This document shows, piece by piece, positions 4,645-51,463 of a stretch of 64,000 nt of DNA. This DNA comes from a virus: the IMG/VR virus record IMGVR_UViG_3300023174_000089, positions 50,874-114,873 of that record; one strand, written 5' to 3'. Both the position numbers and the translations under genes were made by a program. Under the pieces are notes generated by a model that was not told the origin of the DNA, made no database searches, and saw only the letters and a program-made list of their open reading frames with translations. Numbering within the stretch: position 1 is the stretch's first letter; each line of letters begins with the position of its first letter.

Positions 4645-4709
4645 TTACTTCTCCTTTTGTGTGTTGTGTGTGTTATCAGCGAAATGTGTGTGCTGATACA
4701 TTATATAGG

Positions 4710-5020
4710 CCAGGTGATTCTGTTGCTAAGTTCACCTGGTGAAACTCCGCTTACCGTTTAGGCAGCAAGTGCAAACTTATTATCGTTAGCGTTTAATTTA
4801 ATTTGCTTCTTCGGCCGAGTATCTTCAACCCTAACGTCTTTAGCTTTGACGATTCTCCATTGTTCTAATTATTGCTATGTCGAATCTAGGCACCCCCATC
4901 AGAAGTATATTGCCACATTTGTGTTTGCTACCAAGAACCTGGTTCGTCAATATACTTTTGGTGGAGGTGGTGGGAATCGCACCCACGTCCACAACAACTT
5001 TGAAACAACTTCTACGAATT
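4710..5020 (-). ncRNA. ssrA: Circularly permuted (two-piece) tmRNA
   Basis: Acceptor piece ends ...CACCTCCACCA at 4959 and lies upstream of the coding piece starting GGGGGTG at 4897; acceptor stem has G3:U70; tag ANDNKFALAA* at 4790-4758; outer ends approximate. Confidence 0.92.
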
Positions 5021-5119
5021 TCCTAGAATTAATAATGTTGCCATAACTAAAGCAACACCACCAATCCAATAATTAAATCTATTTACTTTTTTTTGTTCTA
5101 CACAATCTTTACTAGGCAT
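5012..5119 (-). CDS. 35-aa small membrane protein
   Basis: MPSKDCVEQKKVNRFNYWIGGVALVMATLLILGNS*; TAATG coupling to the upstream ORF. Confidence 0.55.
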   Translation of the reverse strand: MPSKDCVEQKKVNRFNYWIGGVALVMATLLILGNS

Positions 5120-5294: not shown

Positions 5295-5954
5295 TTAATA
5301 TTTACCACTTTTCTCATAATATGAAATGGCGTTGACTAGACCTGTGATGTGGTCCTCGGTCTTTTGTTTGAATACGATTGGATGGTTATTCTCAACGGCC
5401 ATAATGATTACTAGGTCGTGGATAGGTTCACCTATCAACTCCTCATACATCAACGCATAGGCGCTTGTTTGCCAAAAATAATCTTCAATATCTTCATGGC
5501 TTTTAACTTTTTTGGATGTTTTGAAATCAATTACCGAAAGCACACCATCAAATTCGGCAATACAATCTACACGACCTGCCATATTCAATTGTTTTGACCA
5601 AAGTGCCTGTTCTTGGTAATGAATGTTATTAATACGATTCAGGTGTGGTTTAATTGATAAGAACATTTCATGTGCATCAGGCATCACATTACCCAAATCT
5701 TCATTATTCAAATATCGTTCACATAGTGTATGAACATTTGTACCACGAGAAGTTGCTTTCTTGGTAATTGCATTAGCAACATCATCACCTACTTTATTAC
5801 GCCATGCTTGAAAGATGTGTTTCTTTTGAGCACCAATCACTGTAGTGACTGATGGTAATTTTGTACCATCAGGCAGTTTGTAGAATCGTCTACCATCAGG
5901 AAAAGTTTCTGATTGTAAATCTTGTAATTGTTTTGGTGGGCAGTAATTAAACAT
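5295..5954 (-). CDS. PD-(D/E)XK exonuclease (RecB/Cas4-like) of T4-like phages
   Basis: PSVTTV, RGT.VH, AGRVDCIA...VIDFKTS, Q..AY. Confidence 0.88.
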   Translation of the reverse strand: MFNYCPPKQLQDLQSETFPDGRRFYKLPDGTKLPSVTTVIGAQKKHIFQAWRNKVGDDVANAITKKATSRGTNVHTLCERYLNNEDLGNVMPDAHEMFLSIKPHLNRINNIHYQEQALWSKQLNMAGRVDCIAEFDGVLSVIDFKTSKKVKSHEDIEDYFWQTSAYALMYEELIGEPIHDLVIIMAVENNHPIVFKQKTEDHITGLVNAISYYEKSGKY

Positions 5955-6726
5955 TTTTTTTCGTCAAAAACTTTTCTTTTAATCTATCAAATAATGCTAT
6001 ATCTTCTGGTGTAAGAGTAACAGCATCTACATTTTTTCTATATTCTTTTGCTTGATTCTCAACTTGAAAGATATTCCCATAATATTTGAAATTTTTGGTG
6101 ATTTGCCTTGTGTCATAGGCATCCATAATTATATGATAACGATCTTCATCTGAATCATTTCTAATTTGGTGCCACAAATTCACCCACAGAATATAAACTG
6201 AACCATCAGCTGGCATATGTAGATTTTCACCTTGGCAGATATGCACACATTTCTTATTTGTAATTAATGGAATATGAATTCTTGCCATATAGTTATTTGT
6301 GTCTGAATCTTTATGAACCAAAGATTTTGAATGTGCCTGTAAACAAGATACCCTTGCTCGTCTAGGATAAAACCCTAATGATTCCAAATCATCCAACACT
6401 TCTTTAATATAACCAACACATCCTGCTGTTGGATTTTTATGTTCAAATCCTTCTGCGACATTCATATATTTCATGGCTTTATAATTATATTGGCCATTTG
6501 GAAAAAATACATCATTTGTTTCTTTATCATCAGAATGATAAACTTCCCAACCATCTCGCCAATCACCAGTTCTAGACAATAATGTCCAACCACCAAAGCC
6601 ATGGTATTCTAGTGTTTCAAATTCTTCACCTTGAATCTGTTGTTTACCAAGAGTGAATACATTATTCTCAACCTCTTTTCTCAATCGGTCGATATCAACT
6701 TTATAATCCAACTTTTCATACCACAT
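5947..6726 (-). CDS. Aspartyl/asparaginyl beta-hydroxylase-like 2OG-Fe(II) oxygenase (likely start MWYEK)
   Basis: HKD iron motif, RIHIPLITN, distal H in WHQIRN, R.H.I 2OG-binding strand. Confidence 0.8.
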   Translation of the reverse strand: MWYEKLDYKVDIDRLRKEVENNVFTLGKQQIQGEEFETLEYHGFGGWTLLSRTGDWRDGWEVYHSDDKETNDVFFPNGQYNYKAMKYMNVAEGFEHKNPTAGCVGYIKEVLDDLESLGFYPRRARVSCLQAHSKSLVHKDSDTNNYMARIHIPLITNKKCVHICQGENLHMPADGSVYILWVNLWHQIRNDSDEDRYHIIMDAYDTRQITKNFKYYGNIFQVENQAKEYRKNVDAVTLTPEDIALFDRLKEKFLTKKNV

Positions 6727-7289
6727 TATAAGTTTCCTGTTTCTTTTAAAATTTGACACACATCTTGATAATAATACTGTGTACCTAGAGTAATGGCAAG
6801 CCTTTCACTCAAAACATTATTTGGTTTTACTGCGTGTGGTCGTGTTACATCAAGTAACCACACTTCATTATCTTTTGCGATGAATGATTCTGTTTTTTCC
6901 AAATCGTCCTCTTGGTAGATAAATCCATTGGTTTGATTATCTATCTGATAGGTATTTGGTTGTTCATCTTTAAACTTATAAAACTGTGTTAAGCAATTTT
7001 CAGTTTTTATATAGAAGTTAATTGTTGAATTTATACCACTATCGGTGTGAGGAGGTATTGAATGGTTCACTTTCATTAAAGACATGAAGAAGTCTTTACG
7101 ACATCTTTCCGGCAAAACAGAATATATTTGTGGATGTAATAATGAATTCAAGTTTAAATATTGTATGCCTTTAAATTGGCCATCAATATTTACACCGTAA
7201 GATATTTGAACATCAAGTGGTTCATAACCAGGAACAATGAAATTGTTTTTTAATTTAACAAAACTACTTCTTTGATTTCCATTCTTCAT
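6726..7289 (-). CDS. Second 2OG-Fe(II) oxygenase-like (DSBH) protein
   Basis: IPPHTDS, INFY, WLLDVTRPHAV...R. Confidence 0.7.
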   Translation of the reverse strand: MKNGNQRSSFVKLKNNFIVPGYEPLDVQISYGVNIDGQFKGIQYLNLNSLLHPQIYSVLPERCRKDFFMSLMKVNHSIPPHTDSGINSTINFYIKTENCLTQFYKFKDEQPNTYQIDNQTNGFIYQEDDLEKTESFIAKDNEVWLLDVTRPHAVKPNNVLSERLAITLGTQYYYQDVCQILKETGNL

Positions 7290-7626
7290 ATTGTTTCACG
7301 ATTTGACATTCATAATCCCAATTAATACCTTCATGTGGATTATCCTTAGCGGCTTGCCAAGGTTTACCCAAAATATGTTCGAGAATAGGAATGCCAGGAT
7401 GTAATATTTTTTCTAATACATCAGCATAATCAGTAAACATTTGAAACAACCGCTCTTTATCGGGTTGTTGTAGATTTAAAATGTCGCTGTTCAATTGAGT
7501 ATCGAAATATTTTACGATATGTTTACGATATAACTCAATTTCTTCTTCTGTAACAATACCATCACGGTTGATGTCGGCGTCTGCTACACCATCGTTATTT
7601 AAATCAATATCTTTAATATCAGACAT
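7264..7626 (-). CDS. EF-hand-loop protein
   Basis: DLNNDGVAD and canonical 12-residue loop DINRDGIVTEEE. Confidence 0.6.
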   Translation of the reverse strand: MSDIKDIDLNNDGVADADINRDGIVTEEEIELYRKHIVKYFDTQLNSDILNLQQPDKERLFQMFTDYADVLEKILHPGIPILEHILGKPWQAAKDNPHEGINWDYECQIVKQYEEWKSKK

Positions 7627-8602
7627 TTTCTAATTTCCCCTGAAACAGTTTTTCTTTAAATTCTATTAATTTACTTAGATATAGAGCTGTGTAATAAGTA
7701 AAAAATACAAGAGCCCAAATTGTGTATACGGCCAAGACTTGTTGTTTTCTATTTGATTTTGGTTTTGGTGGTATATAACTGACCACTCTACAGATAACTG
7801 TACCAATTTTCATAATGATACGACCCATGGTGTTATCTTGTTTCAAAACACCCATCTTATAAGCCATATGTTCAGACCAAGGTGTTCCAATCTTAACAGC
7901 CATTTCAGTTGCAACAATCTTTTGTTCAATTTTACGGCGTGATTCTTTTTTGATCCAGAACATAAAATCTGGACCTTTAGCATTCATCCATGATGTAACG
8001 ATACGAGCCCAACGGATATAACCACGATAAACCCTCTTATCTGTTTTACGTAACATCTGGCCATATGCCTGATCAGCTGCCCATATTGTAGAACTCATTA
8101 GGCCTTTATCATACAAATCAGCACAAACGATCTTAGAACAGTTACATGCACAGTTACAATTAAATGTTGCTGAAGCTGCGGCGCCACAATTGTAGCCTAC
8201 AGTTGCATTACAGTTACAATTATATCCAGAAGAACAGTTACAATTGGCTTGAAGATACGATTGTGTATCACAGTTTGTGCAATTTATACCAGAACAATTT
8301 GTGCACTGAGATTCAAAGGCACCAAAAGGTAAACACTGCTGACATTGAATGTTTCCACAGTTACAGTTACAGTTTGTGCAATTTGTAGGAGGACAATTGG
8401 TATTTGAACAGTTACCATTATCACAGTTTCCGTCCATATTTCTCTGATAGTATGCTTTATCTTTAAAAGCATCCATGTTTGGACTGGCTGGAGGATTCTT
8501 TAAATAACCATTTAAAAACTGCAAAGATGCAGAATATGTTGCACCTAAACCTAGTTCGGTCGTTACATCAGATGTCGATATTTGGCCACTTGGTGTTGTC
8601 AT
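7619..8602 (-). CDS. Cys/Asn-repeat protein: virion-fibre-like N-terminus, 22-Cys core, C-terminal helical domain and TM segment
   Basis: MTTPSGQIS.SD..TELG start; aa 59-155 carry 18 NC, 3 QC and 1 AC; KIVC...GYIRWA domain; hydrophobic C-terminus. Confidence 0.75.
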   Translation of the reverse strand: MTTPSGQISTSDVTTELGLGATYSASLQFLNGYLKNPPASPNMDAFKDKAYYQRNMDGNCDNGNCSNTNCPPTNCTNCNCNCGNIQCQQCLPFGAFESQCTNCSGINCTNCDTQSYLQANCNCSSGYNCNCNATVGYNCGAAASATFNCNCACNCSKIVCADLYDKGLMSSTIWAADQAYGQMLRKTDKRVYRGYIRWARIVTSWMNAKGPDFMFWIKKESRRKIEQKIVATEMAVKIGTPWSEHMAYKMGVLKQDNTMGRIIMKIGTVICRVVSYIPPKPKSNRKQQVLAVYTIWALVFFTYYTALYLSKLIEFKEKLFQGKLENV

Positions 8603-8629
8603 TTTACTGTCCGTTACAATTTATTGTAG

Positions 8630-8637
8630 TATTTATG
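8630..8637 (-). promoter_or_regulatory. T4-type late promoter-like CATAAATA
   Basis: 7/8 match to TATAAATA about 28 nt upstream of the Cys-rich gene. Confidence 0.6.
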
Positions 8638-10078
8638 TTGTTTCCAACCGTGATTTTCCATATACTTCAATACCTTCTACCTGACCTATTTTTTCACTTA
8701 CGACCTTGATGGGTATAACCTTTTTCTTTGGTTCCTCTTTGTGTTCATAGATTGTACCAAAAATATCTTGGCGTTCTAGGGGTAGACCTTCCGCCTTAAT
8801 TAAAGTTGGAATGTAACCACCAGTAATTTTCTCAATGGCCAAGGCAAACAATGGTACATTATCTGAATATGAGTTTGCACAAGATATATCCCAAAACTTT
8901 TCATCTAGGAACATACAAGCACCTTTACATAGGTGTAAAACTGGACAACCGCTACATTCTTTACGATTACTCCAATGTGTAGAACTTTTGATTCGAACAT
9001 TATCAAAATCATCTAGTGTTCCACTATGGTGACTTTCACCATTTTTACCCATTTCTAAAGAACTTACGTTTTGACAGGTCATAACATTACCACGCAGGTC
9101 AACAGCAAGGGTGTGTTCATCATCCATGCCACACTTTTGACCTAAGAATTTAGAATTTGTGTGTGTTAATACTGAACCAATAAACCCATCGATTTTGGCC
9201 AACTGGCCAAAGAATCCTATTTTACCTTGTGTGGTGAATATATCAGCAAATGCTGTTCTACGATATTCAAAGTGTTCTTGTTTTGTTTGTAATGAATTAA
9301 CGATACCATCTTCATCATAAGCGTCAACAATACCACCTTCACCCAATACAACATTTGGATCACCGGTTAGTTTAACAAACCATTCATAAATTTCTTTACG
9401 TGATTTGTTTTTCGAATTCATCATTGGGTTGAAACTAAATGATTTACCCAATCTACTCATCATACGGTGAAATCCAAGAATTCTTTTCTTGGCTTCTGGA
9501 TCATCAAATGGATCTGGCCCACGAACTGATTGTCCTGGTCCATCATGTGATATTGATACGGAGAAATCCATCATCATCAACCAATCAATGATATCATCAG
9601 TTAGAATTGACCCGTTGGTAATGATAGAGAATTGTGGTTTTCTTTTCCAATCAGAAAACTTTTCTGCAATAGTTTCGGCCAAAGGTTTTAATGTTTTCCA
9701 ATATACAAGTGGTTCACCACCCCAAAACTCAACTCTTAAGCCAGACTGTTCATCAAATTCTAGTTTGTTAAATTTTTCCATAAAAGAATCGATATCTTTT
9801 TTGGATGTTTCTGGCATTCTTTCAACAAATTTCTGTGAACAATAATCGCAGGAGTAGTTACAACTCAAACCTAATTGAATTTTAATATGTTTAACTAATC
9901 TAGATTTTTTGAGTGGATTATTCTTGTCGAATGGGACATAAGGTTTTAAACCATGTGGTTGAATATTATTGTATTGTAATATGTTTCCATTTTCATCAGA
10001 CAATATGTTGGTCATATTATCATAATAAAAAATCCTCTTATCGTCTTTTGACTTCTCGGTGTGTATTTCAAATAACAT
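8633..10078 (-). CDS. Radical SAM/SPASM-domain maturase
   Basis: CNYSCDYC, FWGGEPL, ITNGS, SISHDG; SPASM cysteines KCG...GNVMTC...CSGC...LCKGAC...C. Confidence 0.93.
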   Translation of the reverse strand: MLFEIHTEKSKDDKRIFYYDNMTNILSDENGNILQYNNIQPHGLKPYVPFDKNNPLKKSRLVKHIKIQLGLSCNYSCDYCSQKFVERMPETSKKDIDSFMEKFNKLEFDEQSGLRVEFWGGEPLVYWKTLKPLAETIAEKFSDWKRKPQFSIITNGSILTDDIIDWLMMMDFSVSISHDGPGQSVRGPDPFDDPEAKKRILGFHRMMSRLGKSFSFNPMMNSKNKSRKEIYEWFVKLTGDPNVVLGEGGIVDAYDEDGIVNSLQTKQEHFEYRRTAFADIFTTQGKIGFFGQLAKIDGFIGSVLTHTNSKFLGQKCGMDDEHTLAVDLRGNVMTCQNVSSLEMGKNGESHHSGTLDDFDNVRIKSSTHWSNRKECSGCPVLHLCKGACMFLDEKFWDISCANSYSDNVPLFALAIEKITGGYIPTLIKAEGLPLERQDIFGTIYEHKEEPKKKVIPIKVVSEKIGQVEGIEVYGKSRLETT

Positions 10079-10217
10079 TATTTTTCCTGTAGTCCTTTAG
10101 TTGTTCTACTTCTCTTTGTTGTTTTATATATTCTATTAGTTCCTGTCGAACTCTTTCCTTGTTGTGATATTCGTAATATAGCCGCTGTTGTTTTGACATC
10201 ATTCTTTTTTTGCTCAT
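10068..10217 (-). CDS. 49-aa basic hypothetical protein (not in ORF track)
   Basis: MSKKRMMSKQQRLYYEY...; AGGAG RBS; overlaps the rSAM start. Confidence 0.6.
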   Translation of the reverse strand: MSKKRMMSKQQRLYYEYHNKERVRQELIEYIKQQREVEQLKDYRKNNVI

Positions 10218-18834: not shown

Positions 18835-19983
18835 TCATACCTGTGGTTGGTTGGCAACCTCAGATGTGGTAGAAATGGTACTTGTATTGGCAGGTGATTC
18901 TACCGAACTATCAACCTTCGAATACAAATCCAGAAATGCCATTTTCGTTTCTTCATCAAAGCGATTCACACACAAGGTGATGGCCTTCATGCGGTCTTTG
19001 AAAATGGTAAAAGCTTTTGCAATATGTACCAATCGGCGAGTGGAAATAATCTCATCAGTAGCACCTTCGTCATATGATTTGCGTACCACATCTGCCCATT
19101 GTACCAAATGATCCACAAATTCTTTGTCATCAATTAATGGTGTAAGAATCTTTTTCTCAGTTTTGGCATCAGGATATTCCTGTTCTACCGTAATTGGAAA
19201 ACGCTCTAAGAAAGCATCATCAAGAATCTGTGATAGATACTTGCCTTCATCACTACCACGACCTTTGGTGTTGGCGGTGGCGATGATAGTAAAGCCAGAT
19301 TTTGGATATACCATTTCACCTGATTTCTTATTGTAATGTGGTTTGCCTTCCATAATACCTTGCAAGCACATTAGTTTGTTTGAACCACGGTCAACTTCGT
19401 CAATCAACAATACTGCGCCACGCTTCATAGCGGTGATAACAGGACCATCACGATTGACCACATTACCATTGACCAATGTAGGACCACCAAGCAAATCAGT
19501 TTCATCAGTTTCAACCGAAATGTTTACACGAATACATTCACGCTGTAATTCGGCACACACTTGCTCAACCATCAAGGTCTTACCATTACCTGATAAACCA
19601 GTAATGAAAATTGGATAGAATGCTTTGCTTGATACAATGTTTCGTAAATCTTTGTAGAAACCAAATGGCACATAATCAGGCCATTTTTGTGGCACCGATG
19701 GTTCGTTCTCATCAACCAATTTTGGCTGGCGGAACTCTAACACTTGTGCATAAGCCATTTCAGTTTCAGGTTCTTGCTGTGCTTGTTTCACAACTGGTTC
19801 ACCTGATGCAGGCACTTTGTATTGGCCTCGGTCATGGCGATATTGTGCCTTCGTAACCAACCAATATGGATACGGTGCACCTGATTCGTTACATACTCTT
19901 GTAATGTCATCACGATTCAAAATTGGTTCAACACCAAAAATTGATTCTGCTGCTGTTACAAAAGCTTTTGCATTTTTATTCAT
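18835..19983 (-). CDS. cobS: MoxR/CobS-like AAA+ ATPase
   Basis: GLSGNGKT Walker A, LLIDEVD Walker B, TANTKGRG, AFLERF, ISTRRL. Confidence 0.9.
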   Translation of the reverse strand: MNKNAKAFVTAAESIFGVEPILNRDDITRVCNESGAPYPYWLVTKAQYRHDRGQYKVPASGEPVVKQAQQEPETEMAYAQVLEFRQPKLVDENEPSVPQKWPDYVPFGFYKDLRNIVSSKAFYPIFITGLSGNGKTLMVEQVCAELQRECIRVNISVETDETDLLGGPTLVNGNVVNRDGPVITAMKRGAVLLIDEVDRGSNKLMCLQGIMEGKPHYNKKSGEMVYPKSGFTIIATANTKGRGSDEGKYLSQILDDAFLERFPITVEQEYPDAKTEKKILTPLIDDKEFVDHLVQWADVVRKSYDEGATDEIISTRRLVHIAKAFTIFKDRMKAITLCVNRFDEETKMAFLDLYSKVDSSVESPANTSTISTTSEVANQPQV

Positions 19984-20012: not shown

Positions 20013-20098
20013 TGGTGGGTAAGGATGGATTCGAACCAACTCAGCCTGAGGCAACGGATTTACAGTCCGCTGTAGCTCTCCAACTCTACGGCTTACCC
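20013..20098 (-). tRNA. tRNA-Tyr(GTA)
   Basis: GGGTAAG/CTTACCC acceptor stem, GCGGA-CTGTAAA-TCCGT anticodon arm, long variable arm, TTCGAAT loop, encoded CCA. Confidence 0.92.
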
Positions 20099-49671: not shown

Positions 49672-51463
49672 TTTTTTTCTCCGTTGTTTTTCTTTTTTTT
49701 ATTTGAGTGGTAATATTTCTTTCCACATCTTTATACGTTTCCAAAGGTTCTTTATTGGTTGAACCACCAAGAACGCCAGCAACACCCATGTTATTGGCAC
49801 CAGGATCGTCAATCGCTTCCAATACTTTTCTAAACTTACTAAATTGTTTTTGTTCTCTATAAGTTACATCGCCTAGACCTGACATAGGATATACTGTTCC
49901 TTGCTGGCGTGTATCGTATTCGGGACCTACCGAGGCCACGTTTCTAATTCTTTGGTTTACCGACTGTATATCGGTAAACCTTTTCCTTTTACCTACTTTT
50001 TCTTTGTCTTTGGAGAAGTTGGTCTCTTTTGGCTCTGGCGAGATTTTGAGGACTGGCTTTTCTTCTGTGTAGGTGCGGAAGGTGTAACTTCCTCTTGTTT
50101 TGTTTGCGTTCCACTTGATGTCGTCTGCGTTGGGGTCGCTTGCTCGGTTGTCGGGGGACAAACTATCGAGGCCACCTGCTCGGAGTTCTGGCGTGGTTTT
50201 AACTTTAGAAAATCTATTAGCGCTTTTAACATTTTTTTCTTCCTTAAATAATGAAACATTCCTATTTTTCCAATCACTAGCGATATCATTAATATTGCCA
50301 GTATCCAAGAATTGTTTAGTAAATTGATATACCTCTGTAATATCCTGTTCCTTGGTATCTAATTTACCAGTATTGTCAAATCCAATGAAATCAACAAACA
50401 TTTCTCTAAAATATTTAGTATTTTCTTGACATTTCATCCATTTGTCATACCGAACCGACTCCACCATCATTCTGGATAATGCCGAGTTTCTTTCTTTACT
50501 AACTTCGTTGGTGGTATTGACAAAAATCATCATGGTGTCATACCCCAATTCTTCCAATTCTTCTTTTATATATGACAACCTCTGGAGGTCATCGGCCGGA
50601 CCATTAATTAATAATGGACCTCTCCTACGGATGGCTTCCCTACGGAAATCACTGGTTTTTTCTGATAATTTTTGTTTGTCGGCAAGATAATCCTTGGCCT
50701 GGACAAAATTTAACTCAACAATTTTACCTTCAGCAATGGCTTCACGAATTACAATATCTTTACCAGAACCTGGACCACCAGTTACGAATATTGCCTTAAA
50801 TTGACCACGGTTATACTGTTCATGTAAACCCATACCTTTACGAGTATCGTGCATTAACTCTTTGGCATGAGAATCAGAAACATGAGAAGGTACACCTTTT
50901 CTAAATTCATGGAAGTTTTTATTCTTGGCATGTTCTCTCATCTTAGTAGCCGACATACCTTCGGTACCTTCAGCATCAGGATCACGATGACCAGCTGAAT
51001 GAACTGTAATTTTCTTAAAATGATATTTTCCGTGACCAGCTTCTACGCCATTGTATTTGTGTAATAGATGGTGCATTTCTTTAACACGATCAGAACCAAC
51101 AACAACATGTAAATGTGTTACACCATTATTATGGGCTTCTACCGCATGATGTAATATTGTTGGCTTTTCTTTTGATGCTGCTTTAAAATTTGTACCACCA
51201 GATTTTGATTCCTCTGTTATTGGGCCAGCGGCATAGCGTTTGAGGTGTTTAATCTTCTGTTCTGCACTCAGAGGATTCTTCTTGCTATCTTGTGTATGTG
51301 AAACGACAATCGTATGGGTTGCATTATTTTTCTTTGCAATCTCTTTTACTTTATTGATTAGTTTCAAATGTCCTGATGTGGGTGGACTCATTCTACCAAA
51401 AGTAATAACATGGTGTTTCTCACCCTCTTGTTGTTCTTTTAGTATATCTAAAAATGATTTCAT
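49655..51463 (-). CDS. HxGH nucleotidyltransferase fused to a P-loop kinase domain
   Basis: MKSFLDILKE; FGRM.PPT.GH, KNPL, VVGSDR, SAG.RDPD, MSATKMR; FVTGGPGSGK. Confidence 0.8.
   Translation of the reverse strand: MKSFLDILKEQQEGEKHHVITFGRMSPPTSGHLKLINKVKEIAKKNNATHTIVVSHTQDSKKNPLSAEQKIKHLKRYAAGPITEESKSGGTNFKAASKEKPTILHHAVEAHNNGVTHLHVVVGSDRVKEMHHLLHKYNGVEAGHGKYHFKKITVHSAGHRDPDAEGTEGMSATKMREHAKNKNFHEFRKGVPSHVSDSHAKELMHDTRKGMGLHEQYNRGQFKAIFVTGGPGSGKDIVIREAIAEGKIVELNFVQAKDYLADKQKLSEKTSDFRREAIRRRGPLLINGPADDLQRLSYIKEELEELGYDTMMIFVNTTNEVSKERNSALSRMMVESVRYDKWMKCQENTKYFREMFVDFIGFDNTGKLDTKEQDITEVYQFTKQFLDTGNINDIASDWKNRNVSLFKEEKNVKSANRFSKVKTTPELRAGGLDSLSPDNRASDPNADDIKWNANKTRGSYTFRTYTEEKPVLKISPEPKETNFSKDKEKVGKRKRFTDIQSVNQRIRNVASVGPEYDTRQQGTVYPMSGLGDVTYREQKQFSKFRKVLEAIDDPGANNMGVAGVLGGSTNKEPLETYKDVERNITTQIKKRKTTEKKNVYKN

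Follow-up and report, generated by a model that had tools for sequence, protein, structure and literature searches.

It has been demonstrated that radical S-adenosylmethionine (SAM) enzymes with a SPASM domain can install thioethers in Cys-rich substrates. For example, NxxcB, which belongs to a streptococcal pathway for peptides that are made on ribosomes and modified after translation (RiPPs), of the radical SAM type (RaS-RiPPs), joins the sulfur of Cys to the Asn beta-carbon and also accepts Ala, Gln or Asp in the acceptor position (PMC9389541). It has also been shown, in 2026, that CrpC of Methanococcus voltae makes SPASM-dependent thioethers on a whole Cys-rich protein, CrpA, and that this enzyme possesses seven SPASM cysteines, its first auxiliary cluster being proposed to have an open site (PMC13692751). 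Here we describe a viral locus that appears to combine such an enzyme with an Asn- and Cys-rich protein and two oxygenases. The DNA analysed (the window, 64,000 nucleotides (nt) in length) covers positions 50,874 to 114,873 of the IMG/VR virus record IMGVR_UViG_3300023174_000089, a 115-kb contig estimated to be 68% complete, and its source is a distant T4-like phage, uncultured and of freshwater origin. Between positions 5947 and 10078 its minus strand carries five contiguous genes, all of which are present as open reading frames (ORFs) where a preliminary description of this DNA had placed them, and which encode a radical SAM (rSAM)/SPASM enzyme, a protein with a tract of Asn-Cys dipeptides, a small putative helper and two members of the Fe(II)/2-oxoglutarate (2OG) oxygenase superfamily.

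We consider it reasonably probable that these genes form an accessory cassette of late genes whose products modify one phage protein after its translation, and our best guess for the chemistry is the formation of Cys-to-Asn thioethers plus hydroxylation. The preliminary description had proposed a dedicated pathway that cross-links and hydroxylates a phage protein; the existence of a module and the link between enzyme and tract hold up in the comparisons presented below, while the chemistry and the place of the product in the virion are put forward as proposals. The candidate enzyme-substrate pair was recognized by comparative genomics, and it is this evidence that is presented first.

Association of the radical SAM enzyme with Asn-Cys tracts

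Scanning of IMG/VR returned more than 470 relatives of the rSAM, and gene order was read in the best 80 of these (63-80% identity), most of which have the genes in the order rSAM, Asn-Cys protein, helper, oxygenase, oxygenase, with frequent insertions of other genes. A tract was taken to be a stretch of 12 residues with three or more [ND]C dipeptides, in an ORF on the same strand as the rSAM gene and no more than 4.5 kb away from it, and the counts were restricted to loci with adequate flanks in which the rSAM shows 35-80% identity. By this definition the enzyme is accompanied by a tract in all 39 viral loci and in 47 of the 48 loci from bacterial genomes, compared with none of 4100 control ORFs from the same loci. 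Within the 115-kb contig only one of the 315 ORFs, that of the Asn-Cys protein itself, has such a tract. Thus, where a shortage of Cys-rich neighbours around rSAM homologues was to count against the proposed pathway, an Asn-Cys neighbour was found in 86 of 87 loci.

The bacterial loci (rSAM identity 35-59%) are mostly prophage-like and belong to Limnohabitans, Polynucleobacter and other Burkholderiales. In these loci the tract mostly constitutes the extreme C-terminus of otherwise unrelated proteins, several of which are fibre-like, as exemplified by a C-terminus that reads NCNCNCNCNC and then CGCC. What accompanies the enzyme throughout is thus the tract itself and no one protein family, since the proteins that carry it are unrelated.

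The Asn-Cys protein of the window (7619-8602, minus strand) consists of 327 amino acids (aa), and its tract (aa 58-156, encoded at 8135-8431, minus strand) is 99 aa long with 18 NC dipeptides and nine NxxC motifs. The 22 Cys first counted in residues 59-155 are borne out and are matched by 22 Asn; at the DNA level the tract is not a tandem repeat, as it contains only three copies of one hexamer. Alignment of homologues revealed little or no variation at N59C60, N110C111, N128C129 and C153-N154-C155, and showed that the residue preceding a tract Cys (564 Cys in 36 homologues) is Asn in 79.6%, Ala in 9%, Gln in 7% and Asp in 3% of cases; the homologues have a median of six [ND]xxC motifs. The protein has no Pfam or PHROG match. 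A search of the ESM Atlas returned only viral clusters without names, below 0.9.

AlphaFold assigns the tract a predicted local distance difference test score (pLDDT) of ~30, i.e. it is not folded by the program when taken alone, as would be expected for a fold that depends on metal or on oligomerization. Together with a Cys density resembling that of metallothioneins, this is in line with an alternative that we regard as rather improbable, namely that the tract is a knob stabilized by metal-thiolate or disulfide bonds, and that the enzymes act elsewhere or only assist folding. The location of tracts at the ends of fibre proteins also fits a metal knob, since such proteins are trimeric in known phages and T4 offers analogues in the His-x-His iron sites of the gp37 needle and the Zn site of gp12. 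The authors of the CrpA study likewise suspect metal binding by their protein (PMC13692751). On the other hand, a metal site needs no radical SAM enzyme, and yet enzyme and tract occur together in 86 of 87 loci. Moreover, Asn precedes Cys in about 80% of cases, and we know of no such preference for Asn in metal-binding Cys motifs.

Further support for modification of a phage protein by a dedicated set of genes comes from the distribution of the cassette as a whole. Related loci were also identified through the flanking exonuclease gene, and in those with enough upstream sequence (n=41) the block is present between the p91-like and exonuclease genes in 26 and missing in 15, so that the five genes come and go together. 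The 15 block-less loci (within L199-L241 of our numbering) have no rSAM, Asn-Cys or AspH-like gene upstream of the exonuclease gene, with one stray oxygenase homologue as the only exception to the absence of the block, and in several of them the p91-like gene lies 160-300 nt from the exonuclease gene. A contig from a freshwater DNA run joins window position 5955 to 10152, skipping the cassette. The earlier suggestion that these genes constitute one functional module is therefore strengthened by both their conserved order and their block-wise presence or absence.

Enzymes of the cassette and proposed chemistry

The rSAM gene (8633-10078, minus strand) encodes a protein of 481 aa that was initially described as having the full set of SPASM cysteines, an assignment on which Pfam Radical_SAM (PF04055; score 35.5 against a cut-off of 29.5), the SPASM model TIGR04085 (33.9 against 27) and the invariant Cys all agree. 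The CX3CX2C motif (C73, C77, C80) and seven SPASM cysteines (C316, C335, C375, C378, C384, C388 and C400, spaced as C316-x13-G-x4-C335, C375-x2-C-x5-C-x3-C388, then C400) are invariant in 38 homologues. Among curated models the best partial matches are those for PapB, geopeptide, QhpD, CcpM and SCIFF maturation (49-77 bits against cut-offs of 340-525), of which PapB, QhpD, CcpM and SCIFF represent Cys-thioether maturases. The individual scores are 77.1 bits against 340 for the PapB-type ranthipeptide maturase (NF047865), with an alignment limited to the N-terminal core, 69.9 against 453 for QhpD (TIGR03906), 54 against 425 for the SCIFF maturase CteB (TIGR03974) and 49.5 against 525 for TIGR04463, and since they fall this far below the family cut-offs the phage enzyme is best placed in a separate subfamily. 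In searches of PDB sequences, CteB (5wgg) aligns over residues 55-391 and is the sole full-length match, while the top match over the rSAM core is TvgB (8VPO), a cyclopropyl synthase, indicating that homology alone does not fix the reaction.

This ambiguity gives some room, although in our view not much, to the possibility that the rSAM modifies the tract by another chemistry, such as formylglycine formation from Cys of the type performed by anaerobic sulfatase-maturing enzymes (anSMEs), alpha-carbon sactionine formation, C-C or C-O cross-linking, or epimerization. Consistent with this, the anSME model and DynA align across the whole length of the enzyme, TvgB forms C-C bonds, and the thioether-maturase models all score below their cut-offs. 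However, anSMEs have eight cysteines in the SPASM region and act on a C/S-x-P/A-x-R motif, whereas only seven Cys are invariant here and the motif does not occur in the tract; the anaerobic sulfatase maturase itself (TIGR03942) was rejected as an assignment, at 49.2 bits against 349.45. In addition, the Cys-rich substrates of characterized SPASM enzymes gave, to our knowledge, thioethers (PMC9389541, PMC13692751). For this reason, and because the Asn, Ala, Gln and Asp found beside Cys echo the acceptor tolerance of NxxcB, a thioether to the Asn beta-carbon is the favoured product.

Two further genes encode the oxygenases. The 187-aa protein (6726-7289, minus strand) has no Pfam family match, and its first description as an oxygenase with a double-stranded beta-helix is supported by the predicted fold (AlphaFold pLDDT 93.4) and by the pattern H81-x-D83...H152...R163, which is invariant. 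VIA-align relates the model to 2OG oxygenases with Z 8-10 over 125-157 aligned residues, and nearly all of the top rows are enzymes of this class, including proline hydroxylases, YcfD, ALKBH and PHD2. The 270-aa protein (5947-6759, minus strand; likely true start at the ATG at 6726) belongs to the AspH family, as had been proposed, with a PF05118 score of 40.5 against 22.6 and with H149-x-D151...H197 invariant in 25 homologues. Since Asn and Asp within Cys-rich modules are the residues on which AspH-type enzymes act, hydroxylation of the tract is proposed, although the epidermal growth factor (EGF) consensus C-x-[DN]-x4-[FY]-x-C-x-C was not in register anywhere in the tract when checked by eye.

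The remaining gene (7264-7626, minus strand) encodes a protein of 120 aa with no assigned fold that was originally called an EF-hand protein. A canonical 12-residue loop, DINRDGIVTEEE, is indeed present at aa 20-31, but it falls below the Pfam cut-off (EF-hand_1 14.5 against 25.4), a second loop is degenerate, and the loop is not conserved, being found in four of 25 homologues within a variable N-terminal extension. What is conserved is a helical core (M63, W116), and the gene for this putative helper is syntenic in 43 of the 80 related loci. Profiles of the 120-aa and 187-aa proteins gave no significant match to PDB sequences.

The five genes are closely packed. A spacer of 30 nt separates the rSAM and Asn-Cys genes, and the next three junctions are, as annotated, overlaps of 8, 26 and 34 nt, the last of which is more likely a 1-nt stop-start overlap (TAATG), because homologues of the AspH-family protein begin at the ATG of residue 12. 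Of the four overlapping junctions originally reported, three thus lie inside the cassette, and the fourth is an 8-nt overlap with the downstream exonuclease gene.

From these observations a sequence of events may be envisaged. The 327-aa protein would be synthesized in the cytoplasm, its gene probably being transcribed from a late promoter of its own, and the SPASM enzyme would act on its Asn-Cys tract. With no more than seven conserved SPASM cysteines, the first auxiliary cluster may have one iron left free to hold a substrate thiol, while the 5'-deoxyadenosyl radical would take a hydrogen from a neighbouring residue, most likely from the Asn beta-carbon as in NxxcB, so as to form a Cys-to-carbon thioether. 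Repeated along the tract, this reaction would yield a compact knot that resists reduction. Hydroxyls would be added by the two Fe(II)/2OG oxygenases after or during thioether formation, with Asn beta-hydroxylation as the obvious candidate, the 120-aa protein may act as a helper, and the finished tract would probably become a fibre-associated element that contacts the host. When the rSAM was co-folded with aa 1-160 of the Asn-Cys protein in the presence of SAM and three 4Fe-4S clusters, the score was 0.25 against a mark of 0.32, which speaks neither for nor against the pairing. The cassette is best termed RiPP-like instead of a RiPP system in the strict sense, because the candidate substrate has 327 aa (and fibres of up to ~600 aa elsewhere), only ~60 aa precede the rSAM core, and no RiPP recognition element (RRE) was matched by the enzyme in the Pfam and curated-model scans.

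Fibre context, C-terminal module and expression

In relatives of the cassette the tract forms part of a tail fibre or is encoded next to fibre genes. A T4 gp36-like fibre protein of Achromobacter phage JWF, encoded one gene away from the rSAM, has an NC run directly before a self-cleaving Hint domain, and two prophages share this layout. The side-tail-fibre gene of Ralstonia phage RSP15, located three genes from the rSAM, has NCQCGN at its end; ORF046 of this phage lies beside the rSAM and resembled an oxygenase by eye, but has no significant similarity to either window oxygenase (E values of 0.16 and 2.8) and no Pfam match. The prophages of Limnohabitans and other Burkholderiales show the order fibre gene with (NC)n, ORF of ~275 aa, one to three 2OG oxygenases (PF13759, PF13640), rSAM and lysis genes, and their tract carriers range from 110 to more than 600 aa, several being fibre-like. 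The ~275-aa ORF has no family match and always follows the (NC)n fibre gene in the prophages and RSP15 (for instance L097:4128-4955, L111:5483-6340 and L001:3314-4129), and its product may be a fibre assembly factor.

Among T4-like relatives, a short form of the Asn-Cys protein, comprising the N-terminal domain and the tract (125-224 aa), lies upstream of the rSAM gene. The N-terminal domain of the window protein (~aa 1-57; 8432-8602, minus strand), with its conserved start MT-x-P-x-SG-x-I, is the one common to these short forms, which adjoin tail-fibre genes. In loci L077 and L083 the short form directly follows genes for the long-tail-fibre distal subunit with S74 chaperone domains, in L076 it is fused to a Peptidase_S74 chaperone domain, and in L060 a gene for a B12-type radical SAM enzyme stands between the distal-subunit gene and the short form. 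In T2-type phages the slot after the distal fibre gene is that of g38, which encodes the gp38 adhesin. Locus L060 (5996-12304) also displays a wider set of enzymes around the Asn-Cys/rSAM pair, with a B12-binding radical SAM enzyme, two PF13759 oxygenases and a tryptophan-halogenase-like flavoenzyme, so that the tailoring set varies between phages.

These arrangements lend support to the earlier view of the Asn-Cys protein as a probable virion component as far as the relatives are concerned, although in the window the gene lies outside the structural module. A broader reading, which we advance tentatively, is a widespread and so far undescribed type of virion modification, namely that phages and prophages of freshwater and soil bacteria employ a dedicated radical SAM enzyme to weld Asn-Cys tracts at those fibre ends that touch the host into thioether knobs, that these are decorated by differing sets of oxygenases and in some cases by a B12-type radical SAM or halogenase-like enzyme, that tract and enzymes move as a unit, and that receptor binding or stability is tuned in this way.

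In the window the tract is followed by a C-terminal module (aa 157-327; 7619-8134, minus strand) that starts with K-I-V-C and is predicted by AlphaFold, at pLDDT >90, as a helical bundle ending in a hydrophobic helix. A HMMER profile of aa 157-327 matched 1556 protein clusters (E <= 0.001) in 1.8 billion representatives, in which the module is always C-terminal, on proteins of 110-1859 aa. The opening residues of the module, K-I-I/V-C, are invariant. An earlier word-based search for longer proteins bearing the module had found none, and the full HMMER search found many. The module usually follows a poly-Gly run and sometimes the ...VHNK end of a Hint domain, whereas an Asn-Cys tract precedes it in only ~10 of the top 150 matches. 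Nearly all carriers come from metagenomes; the sole cultured one is Synechococcus phage SynMITS9220M01, where it forms the end of a Gly/Pro-rich protein whose gene lies between two others with the annotations fibre protein and tail fiber. The best structural matches to the module are NEL E3-ligase domains (Z 5.1-6.5), which were not accepted as homologues and are taken to reflect a similar arrangement only, because such a Z is too weak for a helical bundle. As judged from sequence profiles, the K-I-I-C helical module is a large and uncharacterized C-terminal family that could anchor its carriers, help in assembly or be a terminus that is removed.

As regards expression, a T4-late-promoter-like box, CATAAATA, is located at 8630-8637 (minus strand), where it overlaps the rSAM stop codon and precedes the ATG of the Asn-Cys gene by 27 nt; near the cassette only this variant was detected, and not the exact TATAAATA. 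In the window the ATAAATA core is depleted four-fold, with 8 copies where 31 were expected; seven of the eight lie on the minus (coding) strand, and several are a short distance upstream of gene starts. In 46 of 71 related loci the Asn-Cys gene likewise has this box 11-51 nt (mostly 27-40 nt) upstream of it, and this position and recurrence fit late transcription. In RNA library X20, at low depth, three contigs of 151-159 nt fall on the Asn-Cys gene and two on the rSAM gene, and no contig covered the other three cassette genes at that depth; such contigs give a weak hint of expression, as DNA carry-over may also account for them.

The hydrophobic C-terminal helix, predicted with high confidence, bears on a different possibility, namely that in this lineage the Asn-Cys protein is not a virion component but a membrane-anchored or released RiPP-like effector, or an exclusion or lysis-timing factor, with its conserved N-terminus serving as a leader-like region for recognition. 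The position of the cassette among replication and repair genes and its dispensability in 15 of 41 related loci are compatible with such a role. Nonetheless we deem it unlikely, because the N-terminal domain and tract are also encoded, with no C-terminal module, immediately behind tail-fibre genes and occur fused to S74, a late-promoter-like box precedes the gene, and the prophage forms end proteins of 110 to more than 600 aa, several of them fibre-like, and are not small peptides.

The proposal that the cassette modifies a fibre-type protein by thioether formation and hydroxylation must be balanced against a number of observations that speak against it. The chemistry is a proposal; every curated maturase model was missed by a wide margin, the closest PDB match over the core is a cyclopropyl synthase, and the ~60 aa in front of the rSAM core are too short for a standard RRE. 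The acceptor Asn of NxxcB lies three residues before the Cys and here it is adjacent. Radical SAM enzymes are oxygen-sensitive and 2OG oxygenases need oxygen. In JWF no recognizable oxygenase was found near the rSAM, for which reason the oxygenases may be accessory. Finally, the Asn-Cys protein ends in a membrane-anchor-like helix, and the structural genes occupy contig positions 702-46589, ~10 kb apart from the cassette at ~56.8-61 kb.

The immediate neighbours of the cassette are replication and repair genes and not fibre genes, and the T4-like genes of the phage include those for a gp32-type single-stranded DNA-binding protein, a primase, a DnaB-like helicase and ribonucleotide reductase. 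A peptidase of the phage is ~35% identical to its counterparts in T4-like cyanophages. Near-identical DNA was found in lake, river and other freshwater metagenomes (~9 studies), and megablast of the cassette region against cultured phages gave no match. Just downstream of the cassette, at 4707-5055 (minus strand), lies a permuted transfer-messenger RNA gene of the two-piece, alphaproteobacterial type (Rfam RF04321, 112 bits; RF01849, 58 bits; ARAGORN tag ANDNKFALAA), which hints at an alphaproteobacterial host. Other features of the window are a SleB-type cell-wall hydrolase (PF07486; 3770-4312, minus strand), a tRNA-Tyr (GTA) gene (20013-20098, minus strand) and an AAA-type ATPase (18835-19983, minus strand) that matches a PHROG family labelled 'porphyrin biosynthesis'.

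Significance and relation to known systems

Tail fibres set the host range of phages and are currently viewed as unmodified proteins stabilized by folding chaperones and metal ions. If the proposed modification is true, covalent rewiring of a fibre-type protein would represent a new layer in receptor recognition and in phage engineering, rSAM cross-linking, described for peptides and for a few proteins of cellular origin, would be extended to viruses, and the Asn-Cys repeat would provide enzymologists with a simple substrate rule. The cultured phages JWF and RSP15, in which the enzyme is encoded near a fibre gene, open this idea to direct test. In a cyanophage paper, a different rSAM has reportedly been called an antibiotic-synthesis gene. 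A search of the literature on phages, tail fibres, radical SAM, thioethers and RiPPs found no paper describing such a system in a virus, so that the original statement that no system of this kind had been described stands for viruses and has to be narrowed with regard to cells, where protein-level SPASM thioethers are known (QhpD/QhpC; CrpC/CrpA, PMC13692751).

Among described systems, NxxcB/NxxcA is similar in that a SPASM-type rSAM is encoded beside a substrate with repeated N-x-x-C, and in that its acceptor residues are the same as those beside Cys in the tract; the comparison with NxxC RaS-RiPPs concerns substrate motifs only, i.e. the nine NxxC of the window tract. In contrast, NxxcA is a short peptide with leader and core, encoded in a bacterial operon under quorum control, and here the candidate substrate is a 327-aa phage protein or a fibre end accompanied by oxygenases. 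CteB/SCIFF and PapB/freyrasin are the best curated matches and have multi-Cys substrates, but these enzymes combine an N-terminal RRE with short precursors, and the phage enzyme scores far below the family cut-offs. AspH, the Asp/Asn beta-hydroxylase of EGF domains, shares PF05118 with the phage oxygenase, for which the Cys-rich and Asn-rich neighbour is a plausible substrate; the phage protein differs in keeping the classic HxD...H triad, and the EGF consensus does not fall in the register of the tract. With regard to fibre maturation, the tract directly precedes an S74 or Hint domain in relatives, whereas the window protein has neither and bears a different C-terminal module instead. CrpC/CrpA and QhpD/QhpC come close in another respect, as both are SPASM rSAMs acting on whole Cys-rich proteins; however, CrpA (without known function) and QhpC (an enzyme subunit) are cellular proteins, and neither has a fibre context or associated oxygenases. 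In conclusion, thioethers made by rSAMs on whole proteins have been described, whereas we found no description of a viral cassette associated with the ends of fibres, and what this locus adds to the known systems is the present-or-absent pattern of the cassette, a widespread C-terminal module and weak RNA traces.

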